A stretch of 64,000 nt of DNA from Bdellovibrionota bacterium (GTDB lineage: Bacteria > Bdellovibrionota > Bdellovibrionia > Bdellovibrionales > JAEYZS01), in contig CAUJDY010000063.1 of NCBI GenBank assembly GCA_963169805.1, positions 5,479 through 69,478 on the forward strand. The letters run 5' to 3'. The notes beneath the pieces are model-generated. The model did not search any database and had not been told where the DNA came from. It was given only the letters and a program-made list of their open reading frames with translations. Both the position numbers and the translations under genes were made by a program. Shown piece after piece: positions 2,136 to 32,692 of this stretch. Numbering within the stretch: the first letter of the stretch is position 1; each line of letters opens with the position of its first letter.

Positions 2136-2144
2136 GCCTTATCC

Positions 2145-2690
2145 CTAGTCTTTAAAAGCCTTCACTATAGGCTCGATATCTGCAGATAAACTTTCTATCT
2201 TAGCAATTCGAACCCCCTGCTCATTGAGTACACTAATAACATTCGAATGTGAAAACTCACCGTCTTCAAGCTCCTTAAAACTAATCCCCAAAACGACTGC
2301 CAGTTCTCTTGCAACTAAATCACTTCCAGCCGATAGAAAAGTCCACTCCGATTCACTCAGAGAGCGTGACTTCATATACTTTTTTAAGTGTTCTGGCGTA
2401 TCTCTCTTAGGATCAAACGATGCAAGAACAATTCTGTATTTACCTTTATTCGCTTTTTCAATTTTTCTTTCTATCTCTTTTATTTTTGAGATAGTCATGG
2501 GGCAAGCATGAGGACACTTTGTATAAACCATCCCAATAATCACTTTTTTCCCTGCAAATTCTTTTAGAGATACAGCCTTATTGTTTTGGTCCTTCCAATT
2601 TGAATTTAAATGATATATCGAGTCCTTTGGAAAGTTAGCAAAAGACATCACACAATAGAATAATACTAAACCACTAACGATAAACTTCAT
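2145..2690 (-). CDS. SCO1/SenC family copper chaperone (thioredoxin fold)
   Basis: CxxxC motif 'CPHACP' in a 'VYTKCPHACPMT' context, with a downstream 'FDPKRDTPE...L' segment typical of SCO proteins. The ATG at 2690 forms an ATGA overlap with the nirV stop at 2687, so I prefer it to the longest-ORF start at 2705. Confidence 0.8.
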   Translation of the reverse strand: MKFIVSGLVLFYCVMSFANFPKDSIYHLNSNWKDQNNKAVSLKEFAGKKVIIGMVYTKCPHACPMTISKIKEIERKIEKANKGKYRIVLASFDPKRDTPEHLKKYMKSRSLSESEWTFLSAGSDLVARELAVVLGISFKELEDGEFSHSNVISVLNEQGVRIAKIESLSADIEPIVKAFKD

Positions 2691-3472
2691 AATGACCTCA
2701 CACATCTAAAACCTAAATTCCAAACTGAACTATTACCCTTGAGACTTGATCTAAAGGCAAACCTCATAAAGGCTGCATAATCTTCTTTATTTGCGCTAGA
2801 CATGCCCCCTGCTCCACAAAACATATCTTTATTAAAAGACACATCTTCACGACTTTCACCAGTTACAAATGCTGAGTTAAAATCCTCAACCCACTCCCAA
2901 ATCAGACCATGCATATCCCAAATGCCGTACATGTTTCGGTAGATACTGCCAACAGCCTTAAGTTTTTCGCCTTTTGTCTCTCCATACCAATCTAATATTC
3001 TTCGCAAAAACTTTTCATCTTTATTTGCATCGCGAATTTTTTCAGAGGCTGCTGCCAAAAACTCCCATTCTGCTAAGGTTGGAAGTCTCATTTTATGATA
3101 GGAACAAAAAGCCCGAGCAGCAAACCACGAAACTTCTGTGATTGGTATTTTTTCACTTTTTCCATCAAAAGAAGTTAAATAAGTTCCATCGGCAAAAATT
3201 TCTGAGACATTTTCTTTTGTCCAGCTCGGATTCTTCATTAAGAAATCTACATAGTCCTTTTTAGTAACAGGATAAACCATAACCTCAAGAGCTCCCACCT
3301 TGTAAGGCTTCATTTTAGAGGCCTTTTTTCCCTTTGTTGATTTAGGAACCATCCAAAAAGGAGTGAGCTGACCCGGAGGCGTTTTGGTTAATTCTAGACT
3401 TGAAGACGCAGAAAGGGTCATGCTGTAAACTAAAATAAATAAAAAGCAAAACCCCTTCATACACATGATCAA
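2687..3472 (-). CDS. nirV: NirV-like accessory protein (formylglycine-generating-enzyme/SUMF1 domain)
   Basis: '[10 protein letters not shown]' and the C-terminal 'NLGFRCVRS' are FGE-sulfatase domain hallmarks. It has a signal peptide and lies immediately downstream of nirK, as nirV does in other clusters. The start is ambiguous: TTG 3472, ATG 3466 or ATG 3460. Confidence 0.75.
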
Positions 3473-4893
3473 TGTCCTCCTGCAGGAGCCGTCAACTTAA
3501 CATCTGCAACGTCTTTTGGAGTGACTACTTTTCCAGAATTACCCCATGTGCTGTAGACGTAAGTTAGAACATTTGCGATCTCTTCATCACTTAAACCTAA
3601 TGCAGGCATGACGCTGTTGTAATTAGATCCATTGACAACAATTGGACCAGATAATCCATTCTTCACAACACCGATGGCTCTTTTCGCATCTTTATTGAGC
3701 CAGTCTGAGTTTGCGAGAGGTGGAAATGCGCCACTAATACCTTTGCCATCTGGCTGGTGGCATGCCGCACAGCTTTGCGTATAGATGTTACGACCTAATT
3801 TGATTCTGTCTTCTAGGGTTGCTGCCATTGTGACTTTCTCTGCATCATTCACTTTCTGAATAGCTCCGCCCTCTGGGAGATAAACATTATCCGCAGTTTT
3901 ACCTGAATAAATAACTTTATCTTCTGGACCTTCTACTTTAATTAACCCTAAAGAACCTTTATTAAAAGTTCTAAAAATGGAGTGATCAACCATGACCAAA
4001 CTTCCAGGCACTTCAACTTTAAAATCAACAATTGTTGATCCGCCTGCTGGCACAAGAGTCGTTTGAATATTTTGATTTATCAGATCACCACCTTCAACAT
4101 AGACCTTATCAAAGATTTCTCCAATTACGTGAAAGGAAGAAACTAAATTTGGTCCACCATTACCAACATAGAGTCGAACGGTTTCACCAACCTTAGCAGT
4201 AAGTGCCTTATCTCCTGTCAAAGCATTCGCTGCACCATTAAATACAACATAGGTTGGGTTTTCATCGATAGCTTTTTCCATATCAAAAGGTTGATAGCCT
4301 TGTTTTCCATACTTACCTTTTGTATAAAAATCTCCCTGCATAACATAGTATTCTTTGTCTACTTTTGGCATTCCCTCTTTAGGTTCAACCAAAATAAGTC
4401 CATACATGCCGTTTGCGATATGCATTCCCACAGGAGCCGTTGCACAGTGATACACGTAGAGTCCACGATTGATCGCTTTAAATGAAAAAACACTTTCATG
4501 GCCTGGTAAAGTGAATGAAGCCGCAGCTCCACCGCCTGGCCCAGTCACGGCATGTAAGTCAATATTGTGAGGCATCTTGGATGAAGGATGGTTTTTTAAG
4601 TGAAACTCAATTAAGTCGCCTTCCTTAACACGAATAAAACTACCTGGAACTGTTCCTCCGAATGTCCAGAACGTATAATCTACTCCATCAGCAATTGGAG
4701 CTTTTTTCTCGATCACTTCGAGATTCACTATCAGCTTTGTATTGTGTTTGCGGTTGATAGGAGGAGGAACCATAGGAGGAGCCGTCAAGACCGCGACTTC
4801 CTCTCCCTTAATTTCTCCTGATGTATTGGTATCCTTAAAACAGGATACTAAAGTTAATCCTAATAAACTTAGGATAAATAAAAACTTGCTCAT
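3469..4893 (-). CDS. nirK: copper-containing nitrite reductase NirK, lipoprotein form with C-terminal cytochrome c domain
   Basis: Type 1/type 2 Cu ligand motifs '[16 protein letters not shown]' and '[20 protein letters not shown]'. Canonical lipobox 'LTLVSC'. C-terminal haem c motif CAACH at 3757..3771. GGGAGG RBS upstream. Confidence 0.95.
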
Positions 4894-4949
4894 AGTGGCC
4901 TCCCGTGGTGTTTCTACTACGATATTACTGTTAATTGAAATTGTATAGT

Positions 4950-4963
4950 ATGATTTAGGTCAT
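4950..4963 (-). promoter_or_regulatory. Crp/Fnr-type box ATGATTTAGGTCAT upstream of nirK
   Basis: 14-bp dyad with its centre 63 bp upstream of the nirK ATG. A TAATAT -10-like hexamer (complement of 4922..4927) lies 32 bp from the box centre, which gives class II (-41.5) geometry. Same motif as at 11353, 13733 and 18266. Confidence 0.65.
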
Positions 4964-4965
4964 TC

Positions 4966-5670
4966 TCAACTAGAAGTCGCAGACATTTCTTCGATGATTT
5001 TGTCTAATTTTAGGACTTTTATTTGTTGGTCTTGTGTCTCAATGATGCCCTTTTTAGACCAATCGCTCATTATACGAATGACAGACTCAACAGATGCCCC
5101 AAGACTATCAGCAATTTCTTTGCGCGTAAGAGGCAATGGCAGTGTCGACTCGTCGCCTTCATACTTGTTCAGGATATCTATAAGCAGAAAAGCAATTTTT
5201 GCTGAAAGAGGAGCTTTTAAAAGAGTTTTTTGAGTCTGTAAGCTACCTATACGCGTAGACAGGAGCCCTTGAATTTTAAAAATCAGATCCGTCTGTGATT
5301 TCCATTTTTGTAAAAAAACTTCTCTTGGAATTTTTAAAAATCGAGATGGACCCATTGCATAAGACGAAACTGGATATATGGGGCTAGGTTGCGCCATGAT
5401 AAATGCGGCTATAATATCGCCTGGTGTTGAAAAGTGAACAATCGTGTCTTCACCGTTTGGATTGGGTCGAGACAACTTATAAGCACCACTTAGAACAATA
5501 CCAAAGCTATCCGCCTTTTGCCCCATTTGATAGAGTAGCTGCTTATGTTTGCTAACAATAATCTCACCTGACGTACACAAATCTAGCAATTGATCTGCAC
5601 TGTACCCTTCAAACACTTTAAAATTTAGTAGCTCACTCATTGCTGCCTGTAAGGCTATCGATTTTCCCAA
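4966..5670 (-). CDS. Crp/Fnr family transcriptional regulator (Dnr/NnrR-like, no FNR Cys cluster)
   Basis: N-terminal cNMP-binding-like beta-roll and a C-terminal HTH 'TRKEIADSLGASVESVIRIMSDWSKKGII', with the E..R recognition residues of FNR-type helices. It lacks the N-terminal Cys cluster of true FNR. Confidence 0.85.
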   Translation of the reverse strand: MGKSIALQAAMSELLNFKVFEGYSADQLLDLCTSGEIIVSKHKQLLYQMGQKADSFGIVLSGAYKLSRPNPNGEDTIVHFSTPGDIIAAFIMAQPSPIYPVSSYAMGPSRFLKIPREVFLQKWKSQTDLIFKIQGLLSTRIGSLQTQKTLLKAPLSAKIAFLLIDILNKYEGDESTLPLPLTRKEIADSLGASVESVIRIMSDWSKKGIIETQDQQIKVLKLDKIIEEMSATSS

Positions 5671-5736
5671 AATAACACCTTTGTTATAGAGAAATTCATA
5701 CCTAGGAGCTTGTGCGTCGTCAATAACAGTGAATAT

Positions 5737-6330
5737 TTAGCCTGAAATTGATCTTTTAACTAATGATCTGTGCCGGACTTCGTCATGAGATGGCTCTTCC
5801 AAGCAAAGATTCCGATACGGTTTAAATACCAACTCATCCTCAAAATGAGAGTGTTCTTCAAAGACGATCTGAAATCTATGCATCAATTTTATAAGATCCT
5901 CTAGGTCATTATTTTCTTTTTGATAGCTTGCAAGTCTACCCATTATTCTTTGAATAATCTTTCTATCCTCCTGATGTTCAAGCTCCATGCTTTCTAGCAT
6001 GGGCGTAAGATTTTTATATTCCCCAGTTTCAAGAGACTTAAGTATCACTGCGAAGACAATATTTTCTTCGAGTAGCGTGTGAAATTGTAATCTCTGAATA
6101 AGATACAAAAATAAGTTTTTTGCCTCTATTAACAAACTTCCTTCACTTGTATCTCGTATAACATAAGAATCAAACTGACCAAGAATCTCCTCAATATCTG
6201 CTGCAAGCGTTCGATGGAACTGTAGGACGACATTGCGAATTCTTTCCTCTATAATGTTTTGCTTCGTTTTAGTTGCATTCATACCCATATTATCTCTAAA
6301 TTGCTGCCACCGAAGTATGATGCAAATCAC
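5737..6330 (-). CDS. hemerythrin-like / RIC-like di-iron protein (tentative)
   Basis: Repeated H...E/EE helices ('FHTLLEENIVF', 'LEHQEDRK', 'FEEHSHFEDELVF') typical of HHE cation-binding domains. It lies between norD and the Crp regulator. The start may be the ATG at 6288. Confidence 0.5.
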   Translation of the reverse strand: MICIILRWQQFRDNMGMNATKTKQNIIEERIRNVVLQFHRTLAADIEEILGQFDSYVIRDTSEGSLLIEAKNLFLYLIQRLQFHTLLEENIVFAVILKSLETGEYKNLTPMLESMELEHQEDRKIIQRIMGRLASYQKENNDLEDLIKLMHRFQIVFEEHSHFEDELVFKPYRNLCLEEPSHDEVRHRSLVKRSISG

Positions 6331-6360
6331 ATAGATTTATACTTTTGCCACTAAAATAAA

Positions 6361-8196
6361 CTATTTAATAATATCACGTAAAATATGAAACAAACATGGG
6401 GCTAGTTTTTTAGGACTACTAACTACAAAGTATCTCTTGAACATTCTACTAAAATATTCTTTTTCTCCCTTATCAATTAATACTGCAATGGTAAAAATAC
6501 CTTCTGTCTCAAGTTCTGCACAGGCTTTTTTAATATCCTGGATACCATGCACTCCTTCATATGTGTCTAAATCAGAAGGTTTTCCATCTGTCAGAAGAAT
6601 TAGTATTTTCTTTTTTGCATCAGACTTTTTTAGGTAGCTTCCGGCATGACGTATAGAGGGACCTAGCCTCGTGTATCCTTGAGGCTCAACTATATCGATA
6701 TTTTTATAAAAATTCGCCCAGCTATCACTTTTTCTTTTTACAAAATTAAAAACGCAGTTTTTTCGTGTTGCCGACCATGTCCCCGCAATTTGAACAGTCT
6801 GCATTAAACCATCAAAAACAAGTCCCATCATGACCAAGGAGTCTTGTATGACATTAAATATACGAGTGTTTTCTACCCAGGAATCCGTTGATAGAGATTG
6901 ATCAAAAAGTAAAAATACTTCTGCATCACGTGAAGTCTTCTTCTTTGACATAAAAAGCCTTGGCGCACGATGAACTGATCCATTCACTCTATCTGCAGCG
7001 AATCGAACACACTCATCCATATCCAGTTCTGCTCCGTCGACTTGTCTATTGAACCAAACTGGCTGGTTCACCAAACGCTCGAGTTCGTATTTATAGGATT
7101 GGATTTCTGACGCAAACTCTTTTGAAACACAATCTTTTAATACCGAAGAATGCGCATTGACACATGATTGTTCTGTTAAAGTACAGTAGTTCTGCTTGTA
7201 AGATTGTTTTTTGGAAAACCACTCAGGATAAAGAAATTTACTATCAAGAATTATATCATTTTCGTTTTGATTAGACACAAATATCTGATTCATATCTGCT
7301 GAATAAAATGACTGAGCAGCCTCACCTTGAGAGGTCACATTCGACATATCAAGCTCTTGTAGGGCATCTAAATGATCTTGAAGTTGATCGTCTCCAGATT
7401 CTAACCTATACCCGCCTGAATAATCATCCGCGGTTTCCATTTTCTCAAAGGAGTGAGAAACAGGGTTATACTCTTTTTTTTTCTCATTTAAATTCACTTT
7501 TTTGATAGGGCTTGATTGAATCTTTCTAAACTCTGTCATTTCTTTTTTTCTTGTAATCAAAGCCCCTTCAAGACTATCAGCATCCAAAACAGCTGCATCT
7601 ACCATATTGTGAACAGTCGAAAATTGTAGATAATTTGGTAATTCATCTTTTGCTTTGAAGGTCATTTTTGGGATGAGCACATCTGAAGATATCGATCTTG
7701 ATAATGTCTGGATGCGCCATACAGAAATCAAATCCAAGGGCCCTTTAGAAGGCGCTTCTTTTCCAATAGATTCAAGATATCCTTTTTGAAAATCCTTAAA
7801 CCCAATAAAAACTTCATCCAGATATAAATTTACATCTACATGCCGTCTTAAAAACTCAACCCTCTTTGAGATCAATGAATCAGTCTTATCTTTAGAATAA
7901 ATTTTTAATTTTTTTGTAGCGCATGCTAGTAAGGTTAAGTACAAATATGAATTCTTGTTATTACAATGATTCTTTGACCAATAAATTCTTTCAGGCAAAT
8001 AAAGCATGTCTTCTATAAACCCAGTGTAAGATTTTGAAGGAACTATTTGTTTTAATTCACCTGATCCCAATACATATTGGCCAATTGCATTTACATAAGA
8101 TCTCACATCGCTTAACTGAATGACCTCTAACTGAGATTTATCTCTCTTAACTTTACTATTCCAAATTTTTTGAAATAAATCCTCTACAAATCCCAT
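6361..8196 (-). CDS. norD: nitric oxide reductase activation protein NorD (C-terminal vWA domain)
   Basis: 611 aa. The C-terminal vWA has 'FLLFDQSLSTDS' (MIDAS-like) and 'LILLTDGKPSDLD'. It follows norQ directly. Confidence 0.85.
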   Translation of the reverse strand: MGFVEDLFQKIWNSKVKRDKSQLEVIQLSDVRSYVNAIGQYVLGSGELKQIVPSKSYTGFIEDMLYLPERIYWSKNHCNNKNSYLYLTLLACATKKLKIYSKDKTDSLISKRVEFLRRHVDVNLYLDEVFIGFKDFQKGYLESIGKEAPSKGPLDLISVWRIQTLSRSISSDVLIPKMTFKAKDELPNYLQFSTVHNMVDAAVLDADSLEGALITRKKEMTEFRKIQSSPIKKVNLNEKKKEYNPVSHSFEKMETADDYSGGYRLESGDDQLQDHLDALQELDMSNVTSQGEAAQSFYSADMNQIFVSNQNENDIILDSKFLYPEWFSKKQSYKQNYCTLTEQSCVNAHSSVLKDCVSKEFASEIQSYKYELERLVNQPVWFNRQVDGAELDMDECVRFAADRVNGSVHRAPRLFMSKKKTSRDAEVFLLFDQSLSTDSWVENTRIFNVIQDSLVMMGLVFDGLMQTVQIAGTWSATRKNCVFNFVKRKSDSWANFYKNIDIVEPQGYTRLGPSIRHAGSYLKKSDAKKKILILLTDGKPSDLDTYEGVHGIQDIKKACAELETEGIFTIAVLIDKGEKEYFSRMFKRYFVVSSPKKLAPCLFHILRDIIK

Positions 8197-8197
8197 A

Positions 8198-8968
8198 TTA
8201 TATCGCTAAATTAATTAAATCTTTTAAAGCTCCAACAATTTGTCTGTCTTCAGAAAGAGGTTCAGCAATTGAGATATGACAAGCATCCCTAGGGTCCATT
8301 CCATCGACAATTAATTGAGAAGCTCTTACAAGTAAACGAGTTGATACCGTTTCACTTAACTGATATTCCTCCATTTTTCTAATTCTATTAGCAATAGACA
8401 CAATTTTTTTGGATATATCTTTAGGTACGTTTGTCAATTCACACAAAAGTATGTGTTCAAGATCTGGCTCTAGATACGACATGTGAATTGTTACAAACCT
8501 CTGTTTAGTCGAATTTTTTAATTGCTTGATTCCTCTTTGATACCCCGGATTATAACTTGCAACAAACATAAAATTTGAATGCGCTTTTACAACTTCAGAT
8601 AACTTATCCAAATAGATTTCTCTTCTATGATCTGTTAAAGGGTGTATAGCTACGACCACATCCTCTCGTGCTTCTGCAACTTCATCAAGATACAATATTG
8701 CTCCCTCACGTACTGCCTGAGTGATAGGACCATCTTTCCAAACAGTTTCTCCCCCTTTAATAATATAGCGCCCAAGCAGGTCCGCTGCATTTGTATCCTC
8801 ATTACAAGCAACACTGTAGACCTTAAGACCAAGCTTACTAGCCATGTGAAGGACAAGCTGAGATTTTCCACAGCCGGTTGGTCCTTTGATCATAAGAGGT
8901 ATTCTACTTCGAAAACATCTTTCAAATACCTCTACTTCGTTTTGGTTTGATAAAAATAGTTCATTCAT
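8198..8968 (-). CDS. norQ: NorQ/CbbQ MoxR-type AAA+ ATPase
   Basis: Walker A 'GPTGCGKS' and Walker B 'ILYLDEV'. The size (256 aa) and the position between norB and norD fit. Confidence 0.9.
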   Translation of the reverse strand: MNELFLSNQNEVEVFERCFRSRIPLMIKGPTGCGKSQLVLHMASKLGLKVYSVACNEDTNAADLLGRYIIKGGETVWKDGPITQAVREGAILYLDEVAEAREDVVVAIHPLTDHRREIYLDKLSEVVKAHSNFMFVASYNPGYQRGIKQLKNSTKQRFVTIHMSYLEPDLEHILLCELTNVPKDISKKIVSIANRIRKMEEYQLSETVSTRLLVRASQLIVDGMDPRDACHISIAEPLSEDRQIVGALKDLINLAI

Positions 8969-8972
8969 GAAC

Positions 8973-10301
8973 CTAGCCTCCTACTTTTCCAACTGGCCTT
9001 CCAAATCTGATAAAGTTCCACACGTATGCTATTATTCCTAGAGTAAAGAGTGTTGCTGCTAAGACAAGCCCAAGAAAGTGGACCTCGATTTCTTTTTGAA
9101 CAGCTAAAAAATCAAGCCCAACTTTCCTCTCCAAATACACCTGCGCAATACCCGCAATGCCAAAGGCCACTGTCATTGAAACCATTCCAATATTTGAAAC
9201 CCAAAATGCAAAAACGTTTGCGTTTGAATCTTGCAACTTACGACCTGTTAAATGTGGCATTGCATATGTGATAATTCCAAGAACAAGGCACGCATATGCT
9301 CCCCAAAAAGCAAGATGGCCATGCATAGCTGTTACAAGTGTTCCATGTGTGTACATATTCACTTGAGGTAATGTATGAGCGAAGCCTAGAAATCCAGCTC
9401 CTACAAATGACATCACAGCACATCCGATAGTCCAGAGCATCGCAACTTTATTGTCAGGATTGCGACCGCCTTTCTTTGCCATTGCAATTGCATAAATGGC
9501 CATTCCTAAAAATGCAACTGGCTCCAAAGCACCAAAGACCCCACCAATCATAAGCCAATACCTTGGTGTTCCAATATAGTAATAGTGGTGTCCTGTCCCG
9601 AGTATTCCACTCAAGAAAGTAAATCCAACAATCACATAGAGCCATTTTTCTATAACCTCTCGATCCACACCGGTGAGTTTGATAAGTAAAAATGAAAGTA
9701 TGGCACCCATGATAAGCTCCCAAACACCTTCAACCCAAAGATGCACTACCCACCATCTCCAGTATGAGTCATGAGTTTGATGATCTGTTGGTATCATTCC
9801 TGGTAGATACAAAAGCGCGGCCGTTAAGAGTCCAAAAAATAAAACCAAACTTGTTGTTGTATATCTCTTTCCCTTCCATATTGTACCGCCGATAATTCCA
9901 ATAAACAAAAGCACGTCGACCACGACTAAATAATCTAATGGACGGGGTATTTCTAGGAACTTTCGCCCCTCCCACCATTGAAAGTGAAATCCAATAATTG
10001 CCGTAACTCCAACCAAGACAAAAGCAATGAGTTGAACGTAAGCCCACTTGACCGATAAGATTTCTCGATCAGCTTCCTCAGGAATTATATAATATGCAGC
10101 TCCCATAAACCCTGAAAGCAACCACATGACTAATAAATTTGTATGCACGGCTCTTGCCACATTAAACGGAATCCACTGATGAAGACCATCAAGTCCCATG
10201 TGAGCAAAACCCATTATAAACCCATAAACAAGCTGCAGACTAAAGAGAAGCATACAAACTGCAAAGAACCAGTATGCAACTTTTTGTGATTGATATTTCA
10301 T
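8973..10301 (-). CDS. norB: nitric oxide reductase large subunit NorB (cNOR type)
   Basis: Begins 'MKYQSQKVAYWFF', with 12 TM helices and haem-copper oxidase His ligands (HLWVEG, GTGHHYY, AMHGHLAFWGAY). ATGA overlap with norC. Confidence 0.95.
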   Translation of the reverse strand: MKYQSQKVAYWFFAVCMLLFSLQLVYGFIMGFAHMGLDGLHQWIPFNVARAVHTNLLVMWLLSGFMGAAYYIIPEEADREILSVKWAYVQLIAFVLVGVTAIIGFHFQWWEGRKFLEIPRPLDYLVVVDVLLFIGIIGGTIWKGKRYTTTSLVLFFGLLTAALLYLPGMIPTDHQTHDSYWRWWVVHLWVEGVWELIMGAILSFLLIKLTGVDREVIEKWLYVIVGFTFLSGILGTGHHYYYIGTPRYWLMIGGVFGALEPVAFLGMAIYAIAMAKKGGRNPDNKVAMLWTIGCAVMSFVGAGFLGFAHTLPQVNMYTHGTLVTAMHGHLAFWGAYACLVLGIITYAMPHLTGRKLQDSNANVFAFWVSNIGMVSMTVAFGIAGIAQVYLERKVGLDFLAVQKEIEVHFLGLVLAATLFTLGIIAYVWNFIRFGRPVGKVGG

Positions 10302-11023
10302 TTCACTTTCTCCTTCTTAAGAGTCGAGAGATATGCTGCCAATTCTGTAATTTCCTCTTCTGAAAGTGGCAACTTTGGCATCTTTGAGTCTGGTTTGATG
10401 GACATTGGATTTCTCAACCACTCTTTGAGATAGTTAATATCCCGAAGCTCACCGATTAAATCCAAAGCAGGGCCAACCTCTCCGCCTTGACCATTTAATT
10501 GGTGGCATGCAACACACATTTGATTAAAGATTTGAGGCCGATTTTCATTTTTAACAACAGCATCTAACTCTGAAGTTGCACCGTCCGCTTTTGGAGAAGC
10601 TGTCTTTATAAGATCAGGTTTAGGCGGAAATCCATTTAAATCCATATTTCCGACCCAAATTAGAAATGCAGTCAGGTCGTTAATTTCCTGTTCTGTCAGC
10701 TTATAATTAGTCATCTTACGTTGACCTGGATACATGGCCTCTGGATCTCTGAGCATAGCTTTTATAAAAGCTTCACCTCGTCTTTCAAAAACTTTAGTGA
10801 GCTCTGGAGCATAATAGGCTCCCTCCCCCATAATGGTATGACACCCCATACAGTTTTTGGTATCGAAAAGATGCTTTCCTCGAATAACTTCCTCAGTCAA
10901 ATTCTGGGATTTTGTTTGGTCTGGAATTCTTTGAAATGTATCAATTGTTAGACCAATAAAAATTGCAGAAAATGCAGCTGTACCAAACACGAAAAATGCT
11001 TTGGCTTGCGACTTTGTTAACAT
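10298..11023 (-). CDS. norC: nitric oxide reductase subunit NorC fused to a second class I cytochrome c domain
   Basis: N-terminal TM anchor plus 'NCMGCHTIMGEGAYYAPEL' (NorC signature). A second CxxCH (CVACH at 10502..10516) with a downstream Met-Pro ligand region adds about 90 aa beyond a typical NorC. Confidence 0.9.
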   Translation of the reverse strand: MLTKSQAKAFFVFGTAAFSAIFIGLTIDTFQRIPDQTKSQNLTEEVIRGKHLFDTKNCMGCHTIMGEGAYYAPELTKVFERRGEAFIKAMLRDPEAMYPGQRKMTNYKLTEQEINDLTAFLIWVGNMDLNGFPPKPDLIKTASPKADGATSELDAVVKNENRPQIFNQMCVACHQLNGQGGEVGPALDLIGELRDINYLKEWLRNPMSIKPDSKMPKLPLSEEEITELAAYLSTLKKEKVK

Positions 11024-11033
11024 GAGAATCTCC

Positions 11034-11300
11034 TTAGCCGCCGCACATTCCGCAGCATCCTACTTTACTTTCATTGACTTTTTTTATTTCTGCCTGAGAG
11101 AGCCCATCCTTATTACCAACCAACTCAAACTTTAAATTCTCAACCTGAGCACCAAGAAACTGTCTTTTGACTTCATCAAGACTTTCATTTGATGCAATTC
11201 GAAAACTTTCTCCTGCTCTTAGACCTTCATACATAGAAAACAAAAGACCCGATCTATGAGAAGGTTCAAAAACATCTAAATTAATTGTAGTTACGACCAT
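11034..11300 (-). CDS. DUF2249-like small protein with C-terminal CCGMCGG tail
   Basis: 88 aa. 'INLDVFEPSHRSGLLFSMYEGLRAGESFRI' resembles the DUF2249 (TusA-like) pattern often found with hemerythrin/nor genes. GGAGG RBS. First gene of the nor operon. Confidence 0.55.
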   Translation of the reverse strand: MVVTTINLDVFEPSHRSGLLFSMYEGLRAGESFRIASNESLDEVKRQFLGAQVENLKFELVGNKDGLSQAEIKKVNESKVGCCGMCGG

Positions 11301-11352
11301 ACTTGCCTCCTTATTTAAGCTTTAAGGTATATGAGGTTTTCACCAATAACAT

Positions 11353-11366
11353 ATGATCTAGATCAT
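11353..11366. promoter_or_regulatory. Crp/Fnr-type box ATGATCTAGATCAT in the divergent nor / hemerythrin promoter region
   Basis: Perfect palindrome. Its centre is 60 bp from the minus-strand start at 11300 and 55 bp from the likely plus-strand start at 11415. -10-like hexamers lie about 31-32 bp away on both sides (TATACC on the minus strand; TAGCAT at 11389..11394 on the plus strand). Confidence 0.65.
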
Positions 11367-11414
11367 TTCATGGATTCATTTTTTCCCTTAGCATCAGAAT
11401 CAGGAGAACTGCTA

Positions 11415-11993
11415 ATGAATTCAGCATCTATAGCGCATCCTCTTTTTCAGGTGCTAATGGAGGAACACAAAAAAATTCTATCAAAACTGGCCCAGATAGA
11501 CTTGTCCCCTCGTAGGGACCAGTGGCTACCACTCCTCGATGAGATCATGCAGCTCATCGAGATGGACCATCACTTTAAAGAAGAAAAGCTTCTCTTCTCG
11601 CGCATCTATATGAACCCTAAAATCAATGCAGGAGGTCCGATGTGCAGCCTATTTTTTGATTTTCATATGTCCGAAAAAATCAAGGAACAAGTTGAGCGCA
11701 TTACCTCAACCCCACTTATGATAGAGCCCCACCAAGAAGATATTCTCAAAACACATTGTCCACTCACTTTGCCAATCGAAGAGCATCAGGCGGGAAAAGA
11801 TTTGCTGAAATATATCATAAAAAATATGACACATCTGAAAGACAAAGAAATTTCGCAATATTTGTCTCTCTACAAACAAATTCAATTTTCACACATACAA
11901 AAGGAAGAAAATTGTCTCTATCACCTGTGCTCAAACCTTCTAACATCTCAAGAAGCCGATGAAATTCTAGAGTTATGGAATCAAAAGGAATAA
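11415..11993 (+). CDS. hemerythrin (HHE cation-binding) domain protein
   Basis: 'EMDHHFKEEKLLF' and 'HIQKEENCLYHL' are HHE motifs. I moved the start from the longest-ORF position (11331) to the ATG at 11415, which has an AGGAGA RBS 7 nt upstream. The longer ORF would swallow the Crp box. Confidence 0.6.
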   Translation: MNSASIAHPLFQVLMEEHKKILSKLAQIDLSPRRDQWLPLLDEIMQLIEMDHHFKEEKLLFSRIYMNPKINAGGPMCSLFFDFHMSEKIKEQVERITSTPLMIEPHQEDILKTHCPLTLPIEEHQAGKDLLKYIIKNMTHLKDKEISQYLSLYKQIQFSHIQKEENCLYHLCSNLLTSQEADEILELWNQKE

Positions 11994-11997
11994 AAGT

Positions 11998-13689
11998 ATG
12001 AAAAAGGCATGTACACCTAGAGAGCTTTCCTTGAAGAGTTTTTTTGTAGGACCACAGGCAGAAAACGCAGATATTCTACTCCGACAAATTCAACTTATTT
12101 TAGAGCAATGGATTGATTGGAGGAAGAGTTATTTTCCGCACGATGGGCCAGCCATATCTTATGAGGATACAATTAATAATGATTTTATCAAAAATATAAA
12201 GAAAATGAATCGAGAAACAAAAAATCTTTTAAATCAATTTTCAAAGGAAATACCAAAATTTTCCCCACGCTACCTAGGACACATGTTCTCAGAAATATCC
12301 ATGCCTTCTATAGTAGGTCACATGATTGCTCTTCTTCATAATCCAAATAATATCTCTAGAGAGTCCTCTTGGGTGGGCACAGACATTGAGCGGCTCTCAA
12401 TTTTAGAATTAAGTCGTATGGTGGGTTATACAGATAAAGCTATTGGACACTTTACGTCTGGAGGAACAATTGCCAATTTTGAGGCTATACTACGATCAAA
12501 ATACAAAATAACTAAATCGATTCTCTCAAGCCACAAAAAAGATTTTAATGATGCATGCTATGCAACTCACCCCTTAAATAGAACATTTCAAGTGACTCTT
12601 AGCGATCTAGAAATTTATAAGAAAATACAAAAAAAATATAAATTGGATTTCGCAGGACACACACTTCTTGTACCTGACAGCCAACATTATTCGTGGACAA
12701 AAGGAGCTTCTCTTTTTTCGATAGGACAAAATAATCTCGCAAAAATTCCTCTTAATAAATATGGTCAAATGTCCATTAAGCATCTGAAAAAGACCATTGA
12801 TTCATGCCTCAACCAGAAGAGACCCATCGCATGTATCACCAGCGTTTTTGGTACTACAGAGCTTGGAACGGTTGACTCAATTAGCGAAATTCAACATACA
12901 TTAAATACCTATAAACAGAAATATGGTTATCAGTTCTGGCATCACGTTGATGCAGCTTATGGAGGCTTTTTTGCATGCGCAAAAAATAATCCTATTTTTG
13001 ATAGCAGTATTCTGCAATCCATTCAAACCCTACCAAGCACATCTTCGATTACGATTGACCCTCACAAATTAGGATATGTCCCTTATTCTGCAGGAGTGTT
13101 TCTATGCCAATCAAGAGAGGATTACTATATTCACAAAACAGTTGCTCCTTATGTTAACTTTGATACTGATAAGGACTTGGGCCCCTATACCATTGAGGGT
13201 TCAAGGCCTGCGACTGGAGCGGTGGCACTTTATCTCTCATCTAAATGCATTGGCTTAGACAATAGCGGCTATGGAAAGATTCTTGAAAGAACGATCTCTT
13301 CTGCTAAAAAATTTAAAGAACTTGCCTCTCATGCTAAATCTCCGCTTCTTTTTGTGAGTACAGTTGGCACAAATATCGTCTGCTTTGCAATTGGATCTCA
13401 AGGCGAAAATTTATCAAGTGTGAATAAACGAACTCTAAAGTTTCTTGAACGTGCTATGAAAAAGCAAACAACCCCTCACAAAAAAACATTCTTTATCTCT
13501 AAAACACACCTCTCACGCAATTACAGTAGTCTCATAAAGCATTTTTGTGCTGAATCGAATTTGAAGATGGATACAAATGATCTACCTTTAGCTCGAATTA
13601 CTTTTATGAATCCATTTGTAGATTCAAGACATTCAAAAACGGCGTATTTACAAGATTTTGTGAAATATATCAAATCGTTGTGTAAATAG
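11998..13689 (+). CDS. PLP-dependent group II decarboxylase (tyrosine/glutamate decarboxylase-like)
   Basis: 'SGGTIANFEAIL', 'HVDAAYGG' and the PLP-lysine motif 'DPHKLGYVPYSAGV'. Confidence 0.8.
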   Translation: MKKACTPRELSLKSFFVGPQAENADILLRQIQLILEQWIDWRKSYFPHDGPAISYEDTINNDFIKNIKKMNRETKNLLNQFSKEIPKFSPRYLGHMFSEISMPSIVGHMIALLHNPNNISRESSWVGTDIERLSILELSRMVGYTDKAIGHFTSGGTIANFEAILRSKYKITKSILSSHKKDFNDACYATHPLNRTFQVTLSDLEIYKKIQKKYKLDFAGHTLLVPDSQHYSWTKGASLFSIGQNNLAKIPLNKYGQMSIKHLKKTIDSCLNQKRPIACITSVFGTTELGTVDSISEIQHTLNTYKQKYGYQFWHHVDAAYGGFFACAKNNPIFDSSILQSIQTLPSTSSITIDPHKLGYVPYSAGVFLCQSREDYYIHKTVAPYVNFDTDKDLGPYTIEGSRPATGAVALYLSSKCIGLDNSGYGKILERTISSAKKFKELASHAKSPLLFVSTVGTNIVCFAIGSQGENLSSVNKRTLKFLERAMKKQTTPHKKTFFISKTHLSRNYSSLIKHFCAESNLKMDTNDLPLARITFMNPFVDSRHSKTAYLQDFVKYIKSLCK

Positions 13690-13732
13690 ATGCACAGTCC
13701 CTCAAAAATATACTTTTTTGTGATGCGTATTT

Positions 13733-13746
13733 ATGACCTAGATCAT
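13733..13746 (+). promoter_or_regulatory. Crp/Fnr-type box ATGACCTAGATCAT upstream of nrdJ
   Basis: Same dyad motif, with its centre about 100 bp upstream of the nrdJ ATG. A TATCAT hexamer at 13769..13774 lies 32 bp from the box centre. Confidence 0.6.
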
Positions 13747-13838
13747 AAGCGCTCTGCCCTAAACTTAATATCATATGCGTATGCTTTGGAATTCACACGA
13801 TTATGACAAAGCAACATTGAATTCACCTAGGAGGGATC

Positions 13839-16421
13839 ATGGAAGTAACAACAGAAACTTCAGCTAGAGGTACAGAGACAAAAACTAGCCAAAAAGATTT
13901 AAATTCACTAACTGCAAGATCAACGCAATTCAATAATGATTTTTCAAAGGAAGTCTTTGACCTTACATATAAATATACAAATGAGAAGTCGATCAATGAC
14001 AGACACCTAGCTATAGCCAAAGACCTAGCGAGTGTGGAAAAAACAGAGCTACAATACTATTGGGCTACAAAATTCTTAGACCTCCTTGAAGACTTTAAAT
14101 TTGTACCCGGAGGGAGAATTACTTCAAACGCAGGAACTGGTCTTAAAGGAACAACCTACATCAATTGTTTCGTAAGCGGCTTCAGAGGCCAAAATCAGGA
14201 TTCTATGGAATCCATTATGGATGAACTGAAAAGACAAGCATTGATATTAAAGTCTGAAGGTGGATATGGATTTTGTGCTGACGTACTACGCCCAAGGGGA
14301 TCGTTTGTGGAAGGCATTGGAGGTGATTCTCCTGGAGCCGTAAAACTTCTAGAGATGTGGGATACACAAAGTTCCGTGATAACAGCAGGAAGTGGACTTA
14401 AAAAAAAACACACTAAAGGAAAGACTAAGATTCGAAAAGGTGCTCAAATGGTCACAATGTCAGTGTTTCATCCTGACATTGAAGAGTTTGTCACCTCAAA
14501 ACAAACTCCAAATCACCTAACAAAATTTAATATGTCCGTTCTTGTTTCCGATGAATTTATGAATGCGGTTGAGAAGAATTTGAGTTGGAAGTTAGAATTT
14601 CCCGACTATGAACTTGCAAAAAAACAGTACAAAGAATCATGGGATGGAAATCTAAAGCTTTGGAAGGAAAAAGGATACCCCACTAAAGTTTATAAAGAAT
14701 ATGCCAATGCCAATGAGCTTTGGAATCTTATTATGCAATCTACGTATAATAGAAACGAACCCGGAATACTTTTTTCAGATACCATTAATAAACTTAATAA
14801 TCTTTATTACGACGAATTTATAAATGCAACAAATCCATGCGGAGAGCAGGTTCTTCCAGTGGGAGGTTGTTGCCTGCTGGGATCTATCAATTTAACTCAG
14901 TTTGTCGATATCAAAAAAAGCGACTGGGACTACAAAAAACTTCAAGAGTATATTCCCATTGCTGTACGATTTATGGATAACGTGAATGATAAAACTTCTG
15001 TTCCACTTGAAGAACAGAGAGAAAATTTGAAAACTAAAAGACGCATTGGCCTAGGTATTATTGGTTATGCTTCTGCTCTTATGATGCTCAAAATTAGATA
15101 TGGCTCTGAGGAGGCTCTCACCAAAACTGAGGCCTTGTCGAAGTTTATTATGAACCAGGCCTACAAAGCATCTTCTCTAATTGCCAAAGAGAAAGGAAGC
15201 TTTACAAAGTTTGATAAGGAAAAGTATTTACAGGGTCAGTTCATTAAAAATCTAGATGAGGACACGATTGAGTCTATCCAGAAAAACGGTATGCGAAACA
15301 GCCATTTACTTTCTATCCAGCCCACAGGCAATAGTTCTGTTCTAGCCAATAATATTTCAGGAGGTCTAGAGCCGCTTTTTATGACAAAGTACATCCGAAC
15401 TTCAGTTCAGCCCTTCCCTCCTGAAGGAATGTCAGTTCCTCAAAAAATTGACTGGCAGAATAAAACATTTAGCTGTGACTCCAACACAACAGAATGGAAG
15501 TGGGCACAAGAGGGAGATGAAAACCTTTTAGTAACAAATTATCATGGAGAAATTTGGAAGTTTGATGCTTCAAGAGGTCTTTTAAAAGAATCGCAGATTA
15601 AGGATTATGCTGTTTACTTTCATGAAAATAACAAAACCTGGGAGGACAAAGCCGATTGGACAGCAACTGCTTACGAACTTAAAATTGACGATCACATTAA
15701 AACAATGAAGGTTCTTTCTAAGTACATAGATTCTGCAATGTCTAAGACTGTGAATATACCAAACGACTACCCCTATGATGATTTTAAGAGACTGTATATG
15801 GATGTTTACAAATCTGGAACAATTAAAGGATGCACATCCTACCGAGATGGTACAATGACTTCTGTCTTATCTTTGCAAAGCACATCTGAAAAATTAAATC
15901 TTAAAGGTGTCCCAAGAACAAAAGCTATTAAAAGACCAACAGTTTTAGATTGTGATATTCATCAACTGACGACAAATCAAGAGAAGTGGGTTGTACTAGT
16001 TGGTTTATTAGATGAAGATCCATACGAAGTTTTTGCGATGAAGCAAGATCGACTTTTCTTACCCAACAAGCTGAAACGTGGAAAACTCATCAAGGCGAGT
16101 TCTGGAGTCTACAACTTGGAAACTGAGGATGGCTGGAATCTCGAAAATATTAGTACATTTTTTGAATCGAATGAACAAGAAGCTCTCACACGTATGATCT
16201 CAACGGCTCTAAGACATGGAGCTGATATTGAGTTTATTGTGTCACAACTTATAAAAAGTGAAGGAACCATAAACTCATTTTCAAAAGCGATTGCTCGAAC
16301 TTTAAAAAAATATATTTCAGATATTAAATCCATGAAGTGTTCAGATTGTAAGGGATCGAATATCATTATTTCTGAGGGATGTTTTTTATGTAAAGACTGT
16401 GGCAGCAGTAAATGTAACTAA
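13839..16421 (+). CDS. nrdJ: class II (adenosylcobalamin-dependent) ribonucleotide reductase
   Basis: Active-site finger loop 'NPCGEQVLPVGGCCLLGSINL', 'TTYINCF', 860 aa, and a C-terminal CxxC...CxxC tail. AGGAGG RBS. Confidence 0.9.
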   Translation: MEVTTETSARGTETKTSQKDLNSLTARSTQFNNDFSKEVFDLTYKYTNEKSINDRHLAIAKDLASVEKTELQYYWATKFLDLLEDFKFVPGGRITSNAGTGLKGTTYINCFVSGFRGQNQDSMESIMDELKRQALILKSEGGYGFCADVLRPRGSFVEGIGGDSPGAVKLLEMWDTQSSVITAGSGLKKKHTKGKTKIRKGAQMVTMSVFHPDIEEFVTSKQTPNHLTKFNMSVLVSDEFMNAVEKNLSWKLEFPDYELAKKQYKESWDGNLKLWKEKGYPTKVYKEYANANELWNLIMQSTYNRNEPGILFSDTINKLNNLYYDEFINATNPCGEQVLPVGGCCLLGSINLTQFVDIKKSDWDYKKLQEYIPIAVRFMDNVNDKTSVPLEEQRENLKTKRRIGLGIIGYASALMMLKIRYGSEEALTKTEALSKFIMNQAYKASSLIAKEKGSFTKFDKEKYLQGQFIKNLDEDTIESIQKNGMRNSHLLSIQPTGNSSVLANNISGGLEPLFMTKYIRTSVQPFPPEGMSVPQKIDWQNKTFSCDSNTTEWKWAQEGDENLLVTNYHGEIWKFDASRGLLKESQIKDYAVYFHENNKTWEDKADWTATAYELKIDDHIKTMKVLSKYIDSAMSKTVNIPNDYPYDDFKRLYMDVYKSGTIKGCTSYRDGTMTSVLSLQSTSEKLNLKGVPRTKAIKRPTVLDCDIHQLTTNQEKWVVLVGLLDEDPYEVFAMKQDRLFLPNKLKRGKLIKASSGVYNLETEDGWNLENISTFFESNEQEALTRMISTALRHGADIEFIVSQLIKSEGTINSFSKAIARTLKKYISDIKSMKCSDCKGSNIIISEGCFLCKDCGSSKCN

Positions 16422-16430
16422 TCTAACAAC

Positions 16431-16456
16431 AAAGCCCTTATTTAAATAAGGGCTTT
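16431..16456. terminator. bidirectional intrinsic terminator between nrdJ and hemJ
   Basis: Perfect 10-bp stem aaagccctta / taagggcttt with loop tttaaa, lying between convergent genes. It overlaps the hemJ stop codon. Confidence 0.7.
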
Positions 16457-16872
16457 GTATAGGCTAAAATACAAACGACTATCAGAATAAGAGTAGGAAC
16501 TTCATTTATGATTCTGCAAGATTTCGAAGTCAGTAAAAGATGTCCTTTTCTGAACTGAGTAAAAACATAATAAGAATATAAGTGATAACAACCAAGAAAA
16601 AAAACAAACGTCAGTTTAATATGGATCCATATTTGCTGTAGCAATAGCGGATTTAACACCAACATCCATACACCAAAGGTAAGGGTCAGAATTGAGGCCG
16701 GAAGCATAATATATGTCAGTAACCGATACTCCATCGTTATGAAAGTCTTGCACACCTTTGGCTCATTCCAATTTTCGACATGGTATACAAAAAGCCTAAA
16801 TATATAAAAAAGACCAGCAAACCAAGAGACGACAAAAATAACATGAAGCGCTTTTACAAGTTGATAGCTCAA
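16438..16872 (-). CDS. hemJ: protoporphyrinogen IX oxidase HemJ (CopD-like membrane protein)
   Basis: 'KALHVIFVVSWFAGLFYIFRLFVYH' is the HemJ family signature. 144 aa with 4 TM helices. It abuts the hemN stop. Confidence 0.8.
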   Translation of the reverse strand: MSYQLVKALHVIFVVSWFAGLFYIFRLFVYHVENWNEPKVCKTFITMEYRLLTYIMLPASILTLTFGVWMLVLNPLLLQQIWIHIKLTFVFFLGCYHLYSYYVFTQFRKGHLLLTSKSCRIINEVPTLILIVVCILAYTKPLFK

Positions 16873-18219
16873 TTAAACTCCCGATGAAAACCTCTTAGGT
16901 TCTACCTGATTCATTGCATATTTATCAATCTTATTACAAATATGGCGTGTAAAAGGTTTTCCTTGCTCCGTAATAATGAGCTTATCTTTATTCACTTGAA
17001 CAAGCCCCTCTTGCACCATATCCGCAAATAAATTGACGTCCATGATTTCCCATCTCAAAGGTGTCCAATACTGAGTCATTAGATTCAATATATAACTTTT
17101 GATTTCAAGATCCTCATCTGTAAATAAATGTCCCCTTGAAACAGGTATGACGCTATACTCTAAAACATCTTTATAATATTCATCTAATGTTTTTTTATTT
17201 TGTTGGAATCCAAATAAAGATTCTGAAATAGCACTGACTCCAAGCCCTAATAGTACATCAGTAGCATACTCAGTATATCCCATAAAATTTCTATGCATGG
17301 ATTCATTATTGCTTGAATCTGCGATTGAATCAGATGGAAGAGCAAAATGGTCAATGCCAAGAGGAATATACCCTGCTCCTGAAAAAATATCCCTAGCAGC
17401 ATCAAAAAGAGCTCGCTTTTCACTTCCCTTTTTAATTTCCATCCTCTGGAATCTATTTTGGGCAGGACGCATCCACGGAACAACCGCCAAACTATAGAGC
17501 GCAATTCTATCCGGTTTTAATTCCATCGTTTTTTTTGCAGTTTCTTTAATAGAATCACTCGTTTGACCTGGCAACCCATAAATTAAATCAAAGTTTATGG
17601 ATTTGTAACCCAGTTCTCTGGCCATTAATACACAGTTTTGAACAACCTCGAAGGGTTGTATGCGGTTTACATTTTTTTGGACCTCAATATCAAAATCCTG
17701 CACTCCCAGAGAGATTCGATTAAACCCCAAATCTCTAAGAACCTTCAATTGTTCAAAAGTGCAACGTCTTGGGTCTACCTCAACGGCACCTTCAAATTGA
17801 CTAAAATCTATATTTAAATTTGTGAGGATGGGATCTAAAAGCTTAGTTAAGTTTGCTGCATTAAAAAAGGTCGGAGATCCACCTCCTAAGTGAATTTGTC
17901 TTATTTTTCGCTCCTTTAAAATGGGAACTTTCTGAAGGTACAATTCCCACTCTTTATGTATAGCCTGAATATACTTATCCTCTTTGGAGTGATCCTTTGT
18001 TATCACATTATTACAGGCACAAAACGTACATAAACTTTCACAAAAAGGAAGATGCAAGTACAAGCTCCAAGTTACATCTTCTTTCTGCATCGACTTTTCG
18101 AGCAATAAAGACCATAGATCACGACTCAAGTTGTTCTTCCAGTACGGGACAGGAGGATAACTTGTATATCTAGGAACGGGTGTATCGTATTTATCAAATA
18201 AATTAAGATGGTTGCTCAT
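16873..18219 (-). CDS. hemN: oxygen-independent coproporphyrinogen III oxidase (radical SAM)
   Basis: Radical-SAM CxxxCxxC 'CESLCTFCAC', 'HLGGGSPT', 448 aa, and an N-terminal 'PRYTSYPP' HemN motif. Confidence 0.9.
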   Translation of the reverse strand: MSNHLNLFDKYDTPVPRYTSYPPVPYWKNNLSRDLWSLLLEKSMQKEDVTWSLYLHLPFCESLCTFCACNNVITKDHSKEDKYIQAIHKEWELYLQKVPILKERKIRQIHLGGGSPTFFNAANLTKLLDPILTNLNIDFSQFEGAVEVDPRRCTFEQLKVLRDLGFNRISLGVQDFDIEVQKNVNRIQPFEVVQNCVLMARELGYKSINFDLIYGLPGQTSDSIKETAKKTMELKPDRIALYSLAVVPWMRPAQNRFQRMEIKKGSEKRALFDAARDIFSGAGYIPLGIDHFALPSDSIADSSNNESMHRNFMGYTEYATDVLLGLGVSAISESLFGFQQNKKTLDEYYKDVLEYSVIPVSRGHLFTDEDLEIKSYILNLMTQYWTPLRWEIMDVNLFADMVQEGLVQVNKDKLIITEQGKPFTRHICNKIDKYAMNQVEPKRFSSGV

Positions 18220-18265
18220 AAATTCACCTCTGAGGCTAGGCTAACATAGTACAGTCGACCTAACT

Positions 18266-18279
18266 ATGATCTGCGTCAT
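18266..18279 (-). promoter_or_regulatory. Crp/Fnr-type box ATGATCTGCGTCAT upstream of hemN
   Basis: Same dyad, with its centre 53 bp upstream of the hemN ATG. -10-like hexamers (TAGCCT/TATGTT on the minus strand) lie 27-32 bp from the centre. Confidence 0.6.
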
Positions 18280-32554: not shown

Positions 32555-32604
32555 ACAAGCGACTCCTAACTATGACCTACTTAATACCATACGTATCCAG
32601 AACC

Positions 32605-32638
32605 TTTTTTGTGACACTTTAAATAATGTCACAAAAAA
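32605..32638. promoter_or_regulatory. perfect 12-bp inverted repeat (TTTTTTGTGACA-N10-TGTCACAAAAAA) in a divergent promoter region
   Basis: Lies nearly midway between the metal operon start (32554, minus strand) and the ECF sigma start (32693, plus strand). The run orientation rules out an intrinsic terminator, so it is a candidate operator. Confidence 0.45.
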
Positions 32639-32692
32639 TGGCCTATATACGTATTACTTGATTAAGGTCATAAGAGTTGTCCATAATGGGAT

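Follow-up and report, generated by a model that had tools for sequence, protein, structure and literature searches.

Nitrogen-oxide regulons and the box in the window

DNR, FNR and NnrR belong to the Crp/Fnr family and act as class II activators. The operators of such regulators were described by Rodionov et al. 2005, with a CTTGAT-N4-ATCAAG box for DNR, a TTGCG-N4-CGCAA box for NnrR and several variants for HcpR; recognition-helix residues and half-sites co-evolve in Crp/Fnr subfamilies, and the nitrogen-oxide (N-oxide) regulons have nir, nor, nnrS and dnrN as core targets and hemN as an added one (PMC1274295). Crespo et al. 2016 (PMC4860495) showed that nrdJ of Pseudomonas aeruginosa is activated by Dnr via an Anr/Dnr box, and the presence of nrdJ and hemN in such regulons is documented for Pseudomonas and Burkholderia (PMC4860495, PMC1274295). 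Given these two precedents, both the logic and the content of a regulon of this type are already known. Here we describe a 64-kb stretch of DNA from a Bdellovibrionota bacterium (contig CAUJDY010000063.1; the whole stretch is called the window), in which a related box, ATGAY-N4-RTCAT, precedes genes for denitrification, ribonucleotide reduction and haem synthesis and lies beside the gene for a Crp/Fnr-family protein (4966-5670, called the regulator). Sequence comparison points to a real and well-supported nitric oxide (NO)/low-oxygen regulon of the known kind, with a DNR-like regulator and a box one base per half-site away from that of FNR and DNR. What differs here is the lineage, the ATGAY half-site, an Ile in the recognition helix and the absence of the DNR haem ligands.

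DNR, as known from P. aeruginosa, P. stutzeri and the beta-proteobacteria, resembles the system in the window in its family, in the absence of a cysteine cluster for an iron-sulfur (Fe-S) centre and in its operator, where TGAT/ATCA forms the core of a 5-N4-5 palindrome centred near −41.5 (a predicted position in the window); its structure, 3dkw, is also the best solved homologue of the regulator. It differs in its host phylum, Proteobacteria as against Bdellovibrionota, in its box (CTTGAT-N4-ATCAAG, whereas TATGAY-N4-RTCATA is found here, with an outer A in 82% and an outer T in 1% of half-sites), in its E-x-x-S-R helix (E-x-x-I-R here) and in the haem-associated His139 and His187, which are Gly and Ser here. 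The DNR regulon also comprises nir, nor, nnrS and hemN (PMC1274295) as well as nrdJ (PMC4860495). E. coli-type FNR has the same TGAT-N4-ATCA core, the same spacing to the −10 hexamer (putative here), the family fold and anaerobic functions such as hemN, but carries four cluster cysteines (three N-terminal and one central) against a single cysteine here, and reads an outer T in place of A. NnrR of the alpha-proteobacteria, a Crp/Fnr protein that responds to NO and whose gene lies within the nir-nor cluster, also activates nirK, nor, nnrS and hemN (PMC1274295), although it forms a separate branch of the family and its TTGCG-N4-CGCAA box differs from the ATGAY-N4-RTCAT of the window. For HcpR (Rodionov et al. 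2005), half-site shifts (TGTGA, TTGAC, GTAAC) accompany recognition-helix substitutions and N-oxide genes are controlled, but the motifs are others and the targets are hcp/frdX; gene annotation, as far as it covered the window, turned up no hcp gene. The motif string was absent from the literature searched, which also contained no Bdellovibrionota paper on the regulator (subscription journals and RegPrecise lay outside the search).

The pattern ATGAYNNNNRTCAT (ATGAY-N4-RTCAT) has four exact matches in the window, at 4950, 11353, 13733 and 18266, where a preliminary description had placed the same dyad. Dinucleotide-preserving shuffles yielded a mean of 0.41 matches and a maximum of 2, with none of 100 shuffles reaching four (Poisson P for at least four matches = 8.5 × 10−4). 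All four boxes are intergenic, though only 5.9% of the window lies outside long open reading frames (ORFs), as determined with a crude gene map; given a uniform spread, such placement has P ~1.2 × 10−5. The relaxed core TGAY-N4-RTCA was not enriched in the window (11 observed vs 5.9 expected), and versions of the box with one or two mismatches occurred at chance level (65 observed vs 63.5 expected). This indicates that the outer A/T pair carries the specificity of the motif. The outer base is A in 8/8 half-sites of the four boxes, and the canonical TTGAT-N4-ATCAA occurs once in the window, at 29177, within a coding region. When scored with a position weight matrix (PWM) built from the sites of other genomes only, the four boxes ranked highest, at 18.0-23.7 bits.

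A chance AT-rich palindrome in AT-rich intergenic DNA would fit the 38% G+C of the genome and the chance-level counts of mismatched versions. The enrichment of exact sites, their exclusively intergenic placement and their positional conservation across diverged genomes all contradict it, however, and with the comparative data already refuting it we give this explanation practically no credence. A further site with one mismatch, upstream of the hemerythrin-1 gene, is probably a fifth box. It ranked next after the four boxes with the PWM, but its score of 11.8 bits is within the range of shuffle maxima and not significant alone; the related locus L001 has a box at the matching position, before a hemerythrin gene.

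Conservation of the box and promoter geometry

Related loci were collected by an alignment-based metagenome scan with regulator homologues (41 loci), by look-ups of HemN homologues and the window NnrS (six further loci) and by a genome scan (one locus, L001). The genome scan, made with a single regulator protein, returned this one relative only, and the alignment-based metagenome scan was far richer. Regulators of the compared loci are 41-76% identical to that of the window. Every perfect 5-N4-5 palindrome was then counted in 36 non-redundant loci, without the motif of the preliminary description as input. ATGAT-N4-ATCAT was the commonest such palindrome in intergenic DNA, with 20 copies in 20.7 kb against 3 for the runner-up, while coding DNA held 7 copies in 275 kb, a 38-fold lower density.

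The full consensus is the 16-mer TATGATCTAGATCATA (TATGAY-N4-RTCATA), in which the flanking bases are a 5′ T in 27/35 sites and a 3′ A in 31/35, with a spacer preference for yTAg. Among 47 intergenic sites with a TGAY-N4-RTCA core (94 half-sites), the outer base was A in 77 cases, against 10 with G, 6 with C and a single one with T. The departure from the TTGAT of FNR and DNR is thus systematic, and the exchange of A for T at the outer base, first noticed in the four window boxes, holds across the relatives.

All four site positions in the window have counterparts in other genomes (Table 1). At nirK, the box and a TAnnnT hexamer 22-23 nt later recur in 11 further loci, the sequence being otherwise diverged. 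Recurrent targets in the relatives are nirK, a gene for an 88-aa protein followed by norCBQD, hemerythrin genes, nnrS, nrdJ, hemN and the regulator gene itself; the box of the nor operon is usually common to a divergent hemerythrin or paralogue gene. In relatives without nrdJ, a box precedes nrdG-nrdD, which encode a class III reductase. Boxes also precede a nosZ-cytochrome c gene, a chemoreceptor gene and a high-potential iron-sulfur protein (HiPIP) gene, and in L047 a boxed hemN-hemJ pair is found away from any nir or nor gene. B. bacteriovorus is no model for the hemN site, as its hemN sits within a hemE-N-Y-H operon that has no box.

The spacing of the boxes was compared across promoters. 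Box centres lie 63.5 nt from the start codon of nirK, 59.5 nt from that of the 88-aa gene heading the nor operon, 55.5 nt from that of hemerythrin-2, 99.5 nt from that of nrdJ and 53.5 nt from that of hemN, in agreement with the 53-100 bp first reported. For all five promoters of the four boxes, a TAnnnT hexamer begins 22-23 nt past the box end, and GATAAT stands 22 nt after the probable fifth box. Sites in other genomes were oriented towards the downstream gene and then searched for TAnnnT; of 40 site-gene pairs, 18 had it starting 22 or 23 nt past the box, against a background of ~2.4% per offset (P ~6 × 10−14). When 12 nirK promoters were set out in an anchored comparison, conservation was confined to the box, TAnnnT 22-23 nt later and the ribosome-binding site. 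The hexamer starts 29.5-30.5 nt from the box centre; therefore, if it is the −10 element, the centre would lie at about −41.5/−42.5, the position of a class II activator. The arrangement proposed in the preliminary description, a −10-like hexamer placed as in class II FNR/Dnr promoters, would accordingly appear to be kept in the relatives.

The candidate regulator and its signal

The regulator belongs to the Crp/Fnr superfamily. PF00027, PF13545 and PF00325 all score over cutoff, describing a domain like those that bind cyclic nucleotides (cNMP) and a Crp-type helix-turn-helix (HTH), and an AlphaFold model (pLDDT 88.8) has the Crp-family architecture of beta-roll, long dimerisation helix and C-terminal HTH, with top Foldseek matches that are all Crp-family. 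The protein falls below every curated NCBIfam family cutoff, the best being FNR NF008365 at 38.4 bits vs 228. A profile of 25 homologues, compared with the PDB, had its best match in P. aeruginosa DNR (3dkw, E = 1.6 × 10−26, 96 bits; next match 72.6 bits), a closeness that is a ranking of profile scores; identity to DNR is ~22%. The best TM-score for the model was that of P. gingivalis HcpR, 0.67, and Foldseek against the PDB gave no discrimination among Crp subfamilies. The box co-occurs with orthologues of the regulator, often directly after their stop codon. Together with the distinctive recognition helix, this favours the adjacent protein as the candidate binder, as the preliminary description had it.

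The recognition helix reads V194-E195-S196-V197-I198-R199, and E-x-V-I-R is invariant in the 25 homologues. The corresponding helix of FNR is E209-x-x-S212-R213, and DNR has E193-T-F-S196-R197 at the aligned positions. From the specificity-swap work of Spiro and Guest, the Ser of the FNR E--SR motif reportedly contacts the first T of TTGAT. Ile198 in place of this Ser would probably account for the outer A of the box. The regulator had been called Cys-less; it has one cysteine, C32, which is invariant in the 25 homologues, as is H42. With a single cysteine, an FNR-type four-Cys cluster is impossible.

We consider it likely that the boxes are the operator of this regulator, a DNR-like member of a Bdellovibrionota-specific subfamily that would activate a class II regulon. 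A homodimer would bind the 16-bp TATGAY-N4-RTCATA about 41.5 bp upstream of each transcription start and would activate sigma-70-type promoters that have a −10 hexamer and no usable −35; at box 2, one dimer would serve two divergent promoters. The predicted regulon comprises nirK-nirV-sco1-nnrS, the 88-aa gene with norCBQD, two hemerythrin genes, a gene for a pyridoxal phosphate (PLP)-dependent decarboxylase, nrdJ and hemN-hemJ. The fifth box would drive hemerythrin-1 and probably the regulator gene behind it, resulting in positive autoregulation. The products would form NO and clear it, shield or mend iron centres, and stand in for those steps of deoxynucleoside triphosphate and haem synthesis that need O2 or are sensitive to NO. 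The signal is most likely NO, possibly plus low O2, as the protein has no Fe-S ligands and is related to DNR, and as the core targets centre on NO. The coordinated low-oxygen/NO programme of the preliminary description thus stands as far as its content is concerned, which matches DNR and NnrR regulons, with the emphasis moved towards NO (DNR/NnrR-like) over O2 (FNR-like). We infer binding by the regulator, activation rather than repression, the start positions, the effector and the link from Ile to A from the sequences compared here.

Several points weigh against this reading, and they concern the motif, the promoters, the binder and the signal in turn. Because the exact pattern served as the seed for both the PWM and the site lists, the core columns appear more informative than they are. 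The −41.5 placement is deduced solely from the −10-like hexamer, which at some promoters is a weak one (TAGCCT, TACCTT). At nirK, a sigma-70-like pair, TTGAGA-18-TACAAT, overlaps box 1 in a repressor geometry. The box could, on this ground, be the operator of a repressor that overlaps the core promoter and is released under denitrifying conditions. The pair is not conserved in the 11 orthologous nirK promoters, however, in which TAnnnT at +22/23 is, and a scan for generic sigma-70 −35/−10 consensus pairs found no enrichment in the region (36 pairs vs 42.8 expected). With DNR, FNR and NnrR all class II activators, repression appears very improbable.

Two Crp/Fnr paralogues per locus were found in L004, L010, L017, L020, L021, L024, L035 and L045, and these paralogues carry an E-[SAT]-V-I-R helix. 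Since this recognition helix is common to both groups, the paralogues are expected to read the same box, and the true binder, or a co-binder, could be a different family member with its gene beyond the window, acting in place of the adjacent regulator or in a cascade with it, like ANR and DNR in Pseudomonas. One candidate would be the second paralogue group, whose genes lie beside hemerythrin-2 and nor in many relatives. Against this, no second Crp/Fnr gene was found in the 64-kb window or just beyond its left edge, where copZ/copA are located, and the main orthologue group always accompanies the box. We therefore regard an outside binder as unlikely, and the adjacent regulator remains the preferred one. 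Another candidate binder, NsrR, was rejected: the motif published for it, ATGyAT-N5-ATrCAT, is spaced differently (PMC1274295), and the position of the box suits an activator.

In the HMMER alignment to 3dkw, DNR His139 corresponds to G141, and His187, which we take to be a haem ligand of DNR, to S189. His139 is a haem ligand of DNR (PMC8510549). Haem-based NO sensing is thus not simply transferable from DNR to the regulator. It may instead bind the boxes but respond to O2 or redox state, sensed by Cys32 together with His42, or to a small molecule in the cNMP-like pocket, and so run a hypoxia programme. The absence of both DNR histidines, the invariance of C32 and H42 and the failure to reach any curated family cutoff are in keeping with such a signal, as is the inclusion of hemN and nrdJ/nrdDG, which are classic anaerobic replacements. 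The lack of the four cysteines of an FNR-type Fe-S centre speaks against it, as do the core targets, since nirK, nor, nnrS and hemerythrin/RIC-like genes are NO-centred, as in DNR, NnrR and NsrR regulons (PMC1274295). In sequence and fold, moreover, the haem-NO sensors DNR and HcpR are among its nearest relatives. A signal other than NO therefore seems rather unlikely, though less so than an outside binder.

A broader proposal is that the regulator represents a separate, Bdellovibrionota-wide subfamily in which the Ser-to-Ile change respecified TTGAT to ATGAT, sensing occurs via Cys32/His42, and the cell is switched to an O2-independent, NO-insensitive ribonucleotide reductase (RNR). The altered half-site would then insulate the NO/denitrification regulon from FNR-type regulators in the same cell. 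A new sensor site, for example a Cys/His-ligated haem or metal, would replace DNR His139/His187, and the reductase switched to would be whichever the genome has, nrdJ here and nrdDG in relatives. We put this forward tentatively, as doubtful in its full extent; the likely reading remains that of a DNR-like activator acting through the boxes.

Genes and other features of the region

The gene names given in the preliminary description were upheld by matches to Pfam and NCBIfam. NirK matches TIGR02376 with 358 bits (cutoff 296), NrdJ TIGR02504 with 460 bits (cutoff 400) and HemN TIGR00538 with 388 bits (cutoff 325); NorC/B/Q/D, HemJ (UPF0093), the two hemerythrin-domain proteins and the Crp/Fnr protein at 4966-5670 are also supported. 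The closely packed nirK, nirV-like, SCO1/SenC and nnrS genes probably form one operon. Coordinates of the boxes, hexamers and genes are collected in Table 1.

Table 1. Boxes, putative −10 hexamers and genes in the 64-kb window
Feature	Coordinates	Strand	Remarks
Box 1, ATGATTTAGGTCAT	4950..4963		Between regulator stop codon (4966-4968) and nirK; PWM 18.0 bits; kept in the nirK promoters of 11 further loci
Box 2, ATGATCTAGATCAT, perfect palindrome	11353..11366		Common to divergent nor and hemerythrin-2 promoters; PWM 20.0 bits; kept in at least eight loci (L010, L012, L020, L021, L024, L042, L043, L044)
Box 3, ATGACCTAGATCAT	13733..13746		Upstream of nrdJ; PWM 23.7 bits; kept in L043 (99.5 nt upstream, same as window), L044, L042, L012
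Box 4, ATGATCTGCGTCAT	18266..18279		Upstream of hemN; PWM 20.8 bits; kept in L043 (55.5 nt), L044 (57.5 nt), L047 (59.5 nt), L045
Probable fifth box, one mismatch, GTGATTTGCATCAT on minus strand	6317..6330		Upstream of hemerythrin-1 and, through it, of regulator; PWM 11.8 bits
−10-like TAATAT for nirK	4922..4927	-	22 nt after box 1
−10-like TACCTT for nor operon (or TATACC at 11326-11331)	11324..11329	-	23 nt after box 2
−10-like TAGCAT for hemerythrin-2	11389..11394	+	22 nt after box 2
−10-like TATCAT for nrdJ (alternative TAATAT 13766-13771)	13769..13774	+	22 nt after box 3
−10-like TAGCCT for hemN	18238..18243	-	22 nt after box 4
nirK-(nirV-like FGE-sulfatase-domain gene)-SCO1/SenC-nnrS	1020..4893	-	Closely packed
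nirK with fused C-terminal cytochrome c domain	3469-4893	-	Pfam/NCBIfam
Crp/Fnr-family regulator, putatively DNR-like	4966..5670	-	Pfam, homologue alignment, model
Hemerythrin-1, hemerythrin-domain protein	5737..6288	-	Weak similarity to RIC/YtfE di-iron repair family
nor operon: 88-aa gene, then norC, norB, norQ, norD	6361..11300	-	Pfam
Hemerythrin-2 and PLP-dependent decarboxylase	11415..13689	+	Hemerythrin-2 start 11415, AGGAGA before it
nrdJ, class II (adenosylcobalamin) RNR	13839..16421	+	NCBIfam
hemN (oxygen-independent coproporphyrinogen III oxidase) and hemJ	16438..18219	-	NCBIfam/Pfam

The true start of hemerythrin-1 is probably 6288 or 6282, and not the GTG of the ORF at 6330. In four loci (window 6282-6330, L001 707-756, L004 9890-9939, L007 3308-3357), 41.5-42.5 nt separate its start codon from the box centre; as this falls on the predicted transcription start, the hemerythrin-1 mRNA may be leaderless. 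NorC (10298-11023) has 241 aa and two CxxCH haem motifs. The 88-aa protein (11034-11300) is without a Pfam match and ends in a C-terminal tail GCCGMCGG; its gene is consistently the first of the norCBQD operon in this lineage (at least seven loci). The PLP-dependent decarboxylase (11998-13689), which is tyrosine-decarboxylase-like and under every family cutoff, sits between hemerythrin-2 and nrdJ; in relatives it adjoins hemerythrin-2 in L004 and L044 and nrdJ in L033, L034 and L044. A ResB-like gene is divergent from hemN, with its start 42.5 nt from box 4 on the side opposite hemN.

Among the relatives, L045 (7521-9787) has nrdD-nrdG, for a class III RNR, divergent from hemN with a box between them, in place of nrdJ, and its second Crp/Fnr paralogue follows an nnrS-linked membrane protein. 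Upstream of nrdG in L017 (10742-10760), L020, L019, L021, L022, L039 and L010, the box is followed by a conserved TTGACTATATCTAGTGG, whose likeness to an NrdR box suggests that the anaerobic reductase is under dual control.

Elsewhere in the window, the intergenic DNA at 32572-32722, ahead of a gene for an ECF sigma factor (32693-33217), contains an inverted repeat, TGTGACA-N10-TGTCACA (32610-32634), and three weak box-like sequences at 32572, 32658 (TTGATTAAGGTCAT) and 32709, none of them significant; the PWM match at 32658 scored 9.8 bits, less than the maxima of the shuffles, and was left out of the count. The gene at 22915-23619 encodes a protein with a Bd3614-like deaminase domain, which marks genomes of the Bdellovibrio type; together with the names of the closest homologues, it assigns the organism to the Bdellovibrionales or a group close to them. 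Just past window position 1, copZ and a copA-like ATPase gene (L048 2385-4302) have a MerR/CueR-type promoter (TTGACC, a long spacer with an inverted repeat, GATGAT) and no regulon box.

The general understanding of how such regulons work is unchanged by these data, and the finding is of moderate-to-low surprise. It provides a high-confidence, sequence-based annotation of regulon and operator for the denitrification and NO genes of Bdellovibrio-like bacteria; descriptions of N-oxide regulation in this phylum are all but lacking. The pairing of a Ser-to-Ile change in one helix residue with a T-to-A change in one base would offer a natural test of Crp/Fnr specificity. The link of NO-responsive regulators to O2-independent ribonucleotide reductases and haem synthesis would likewise be extended to another phylum.

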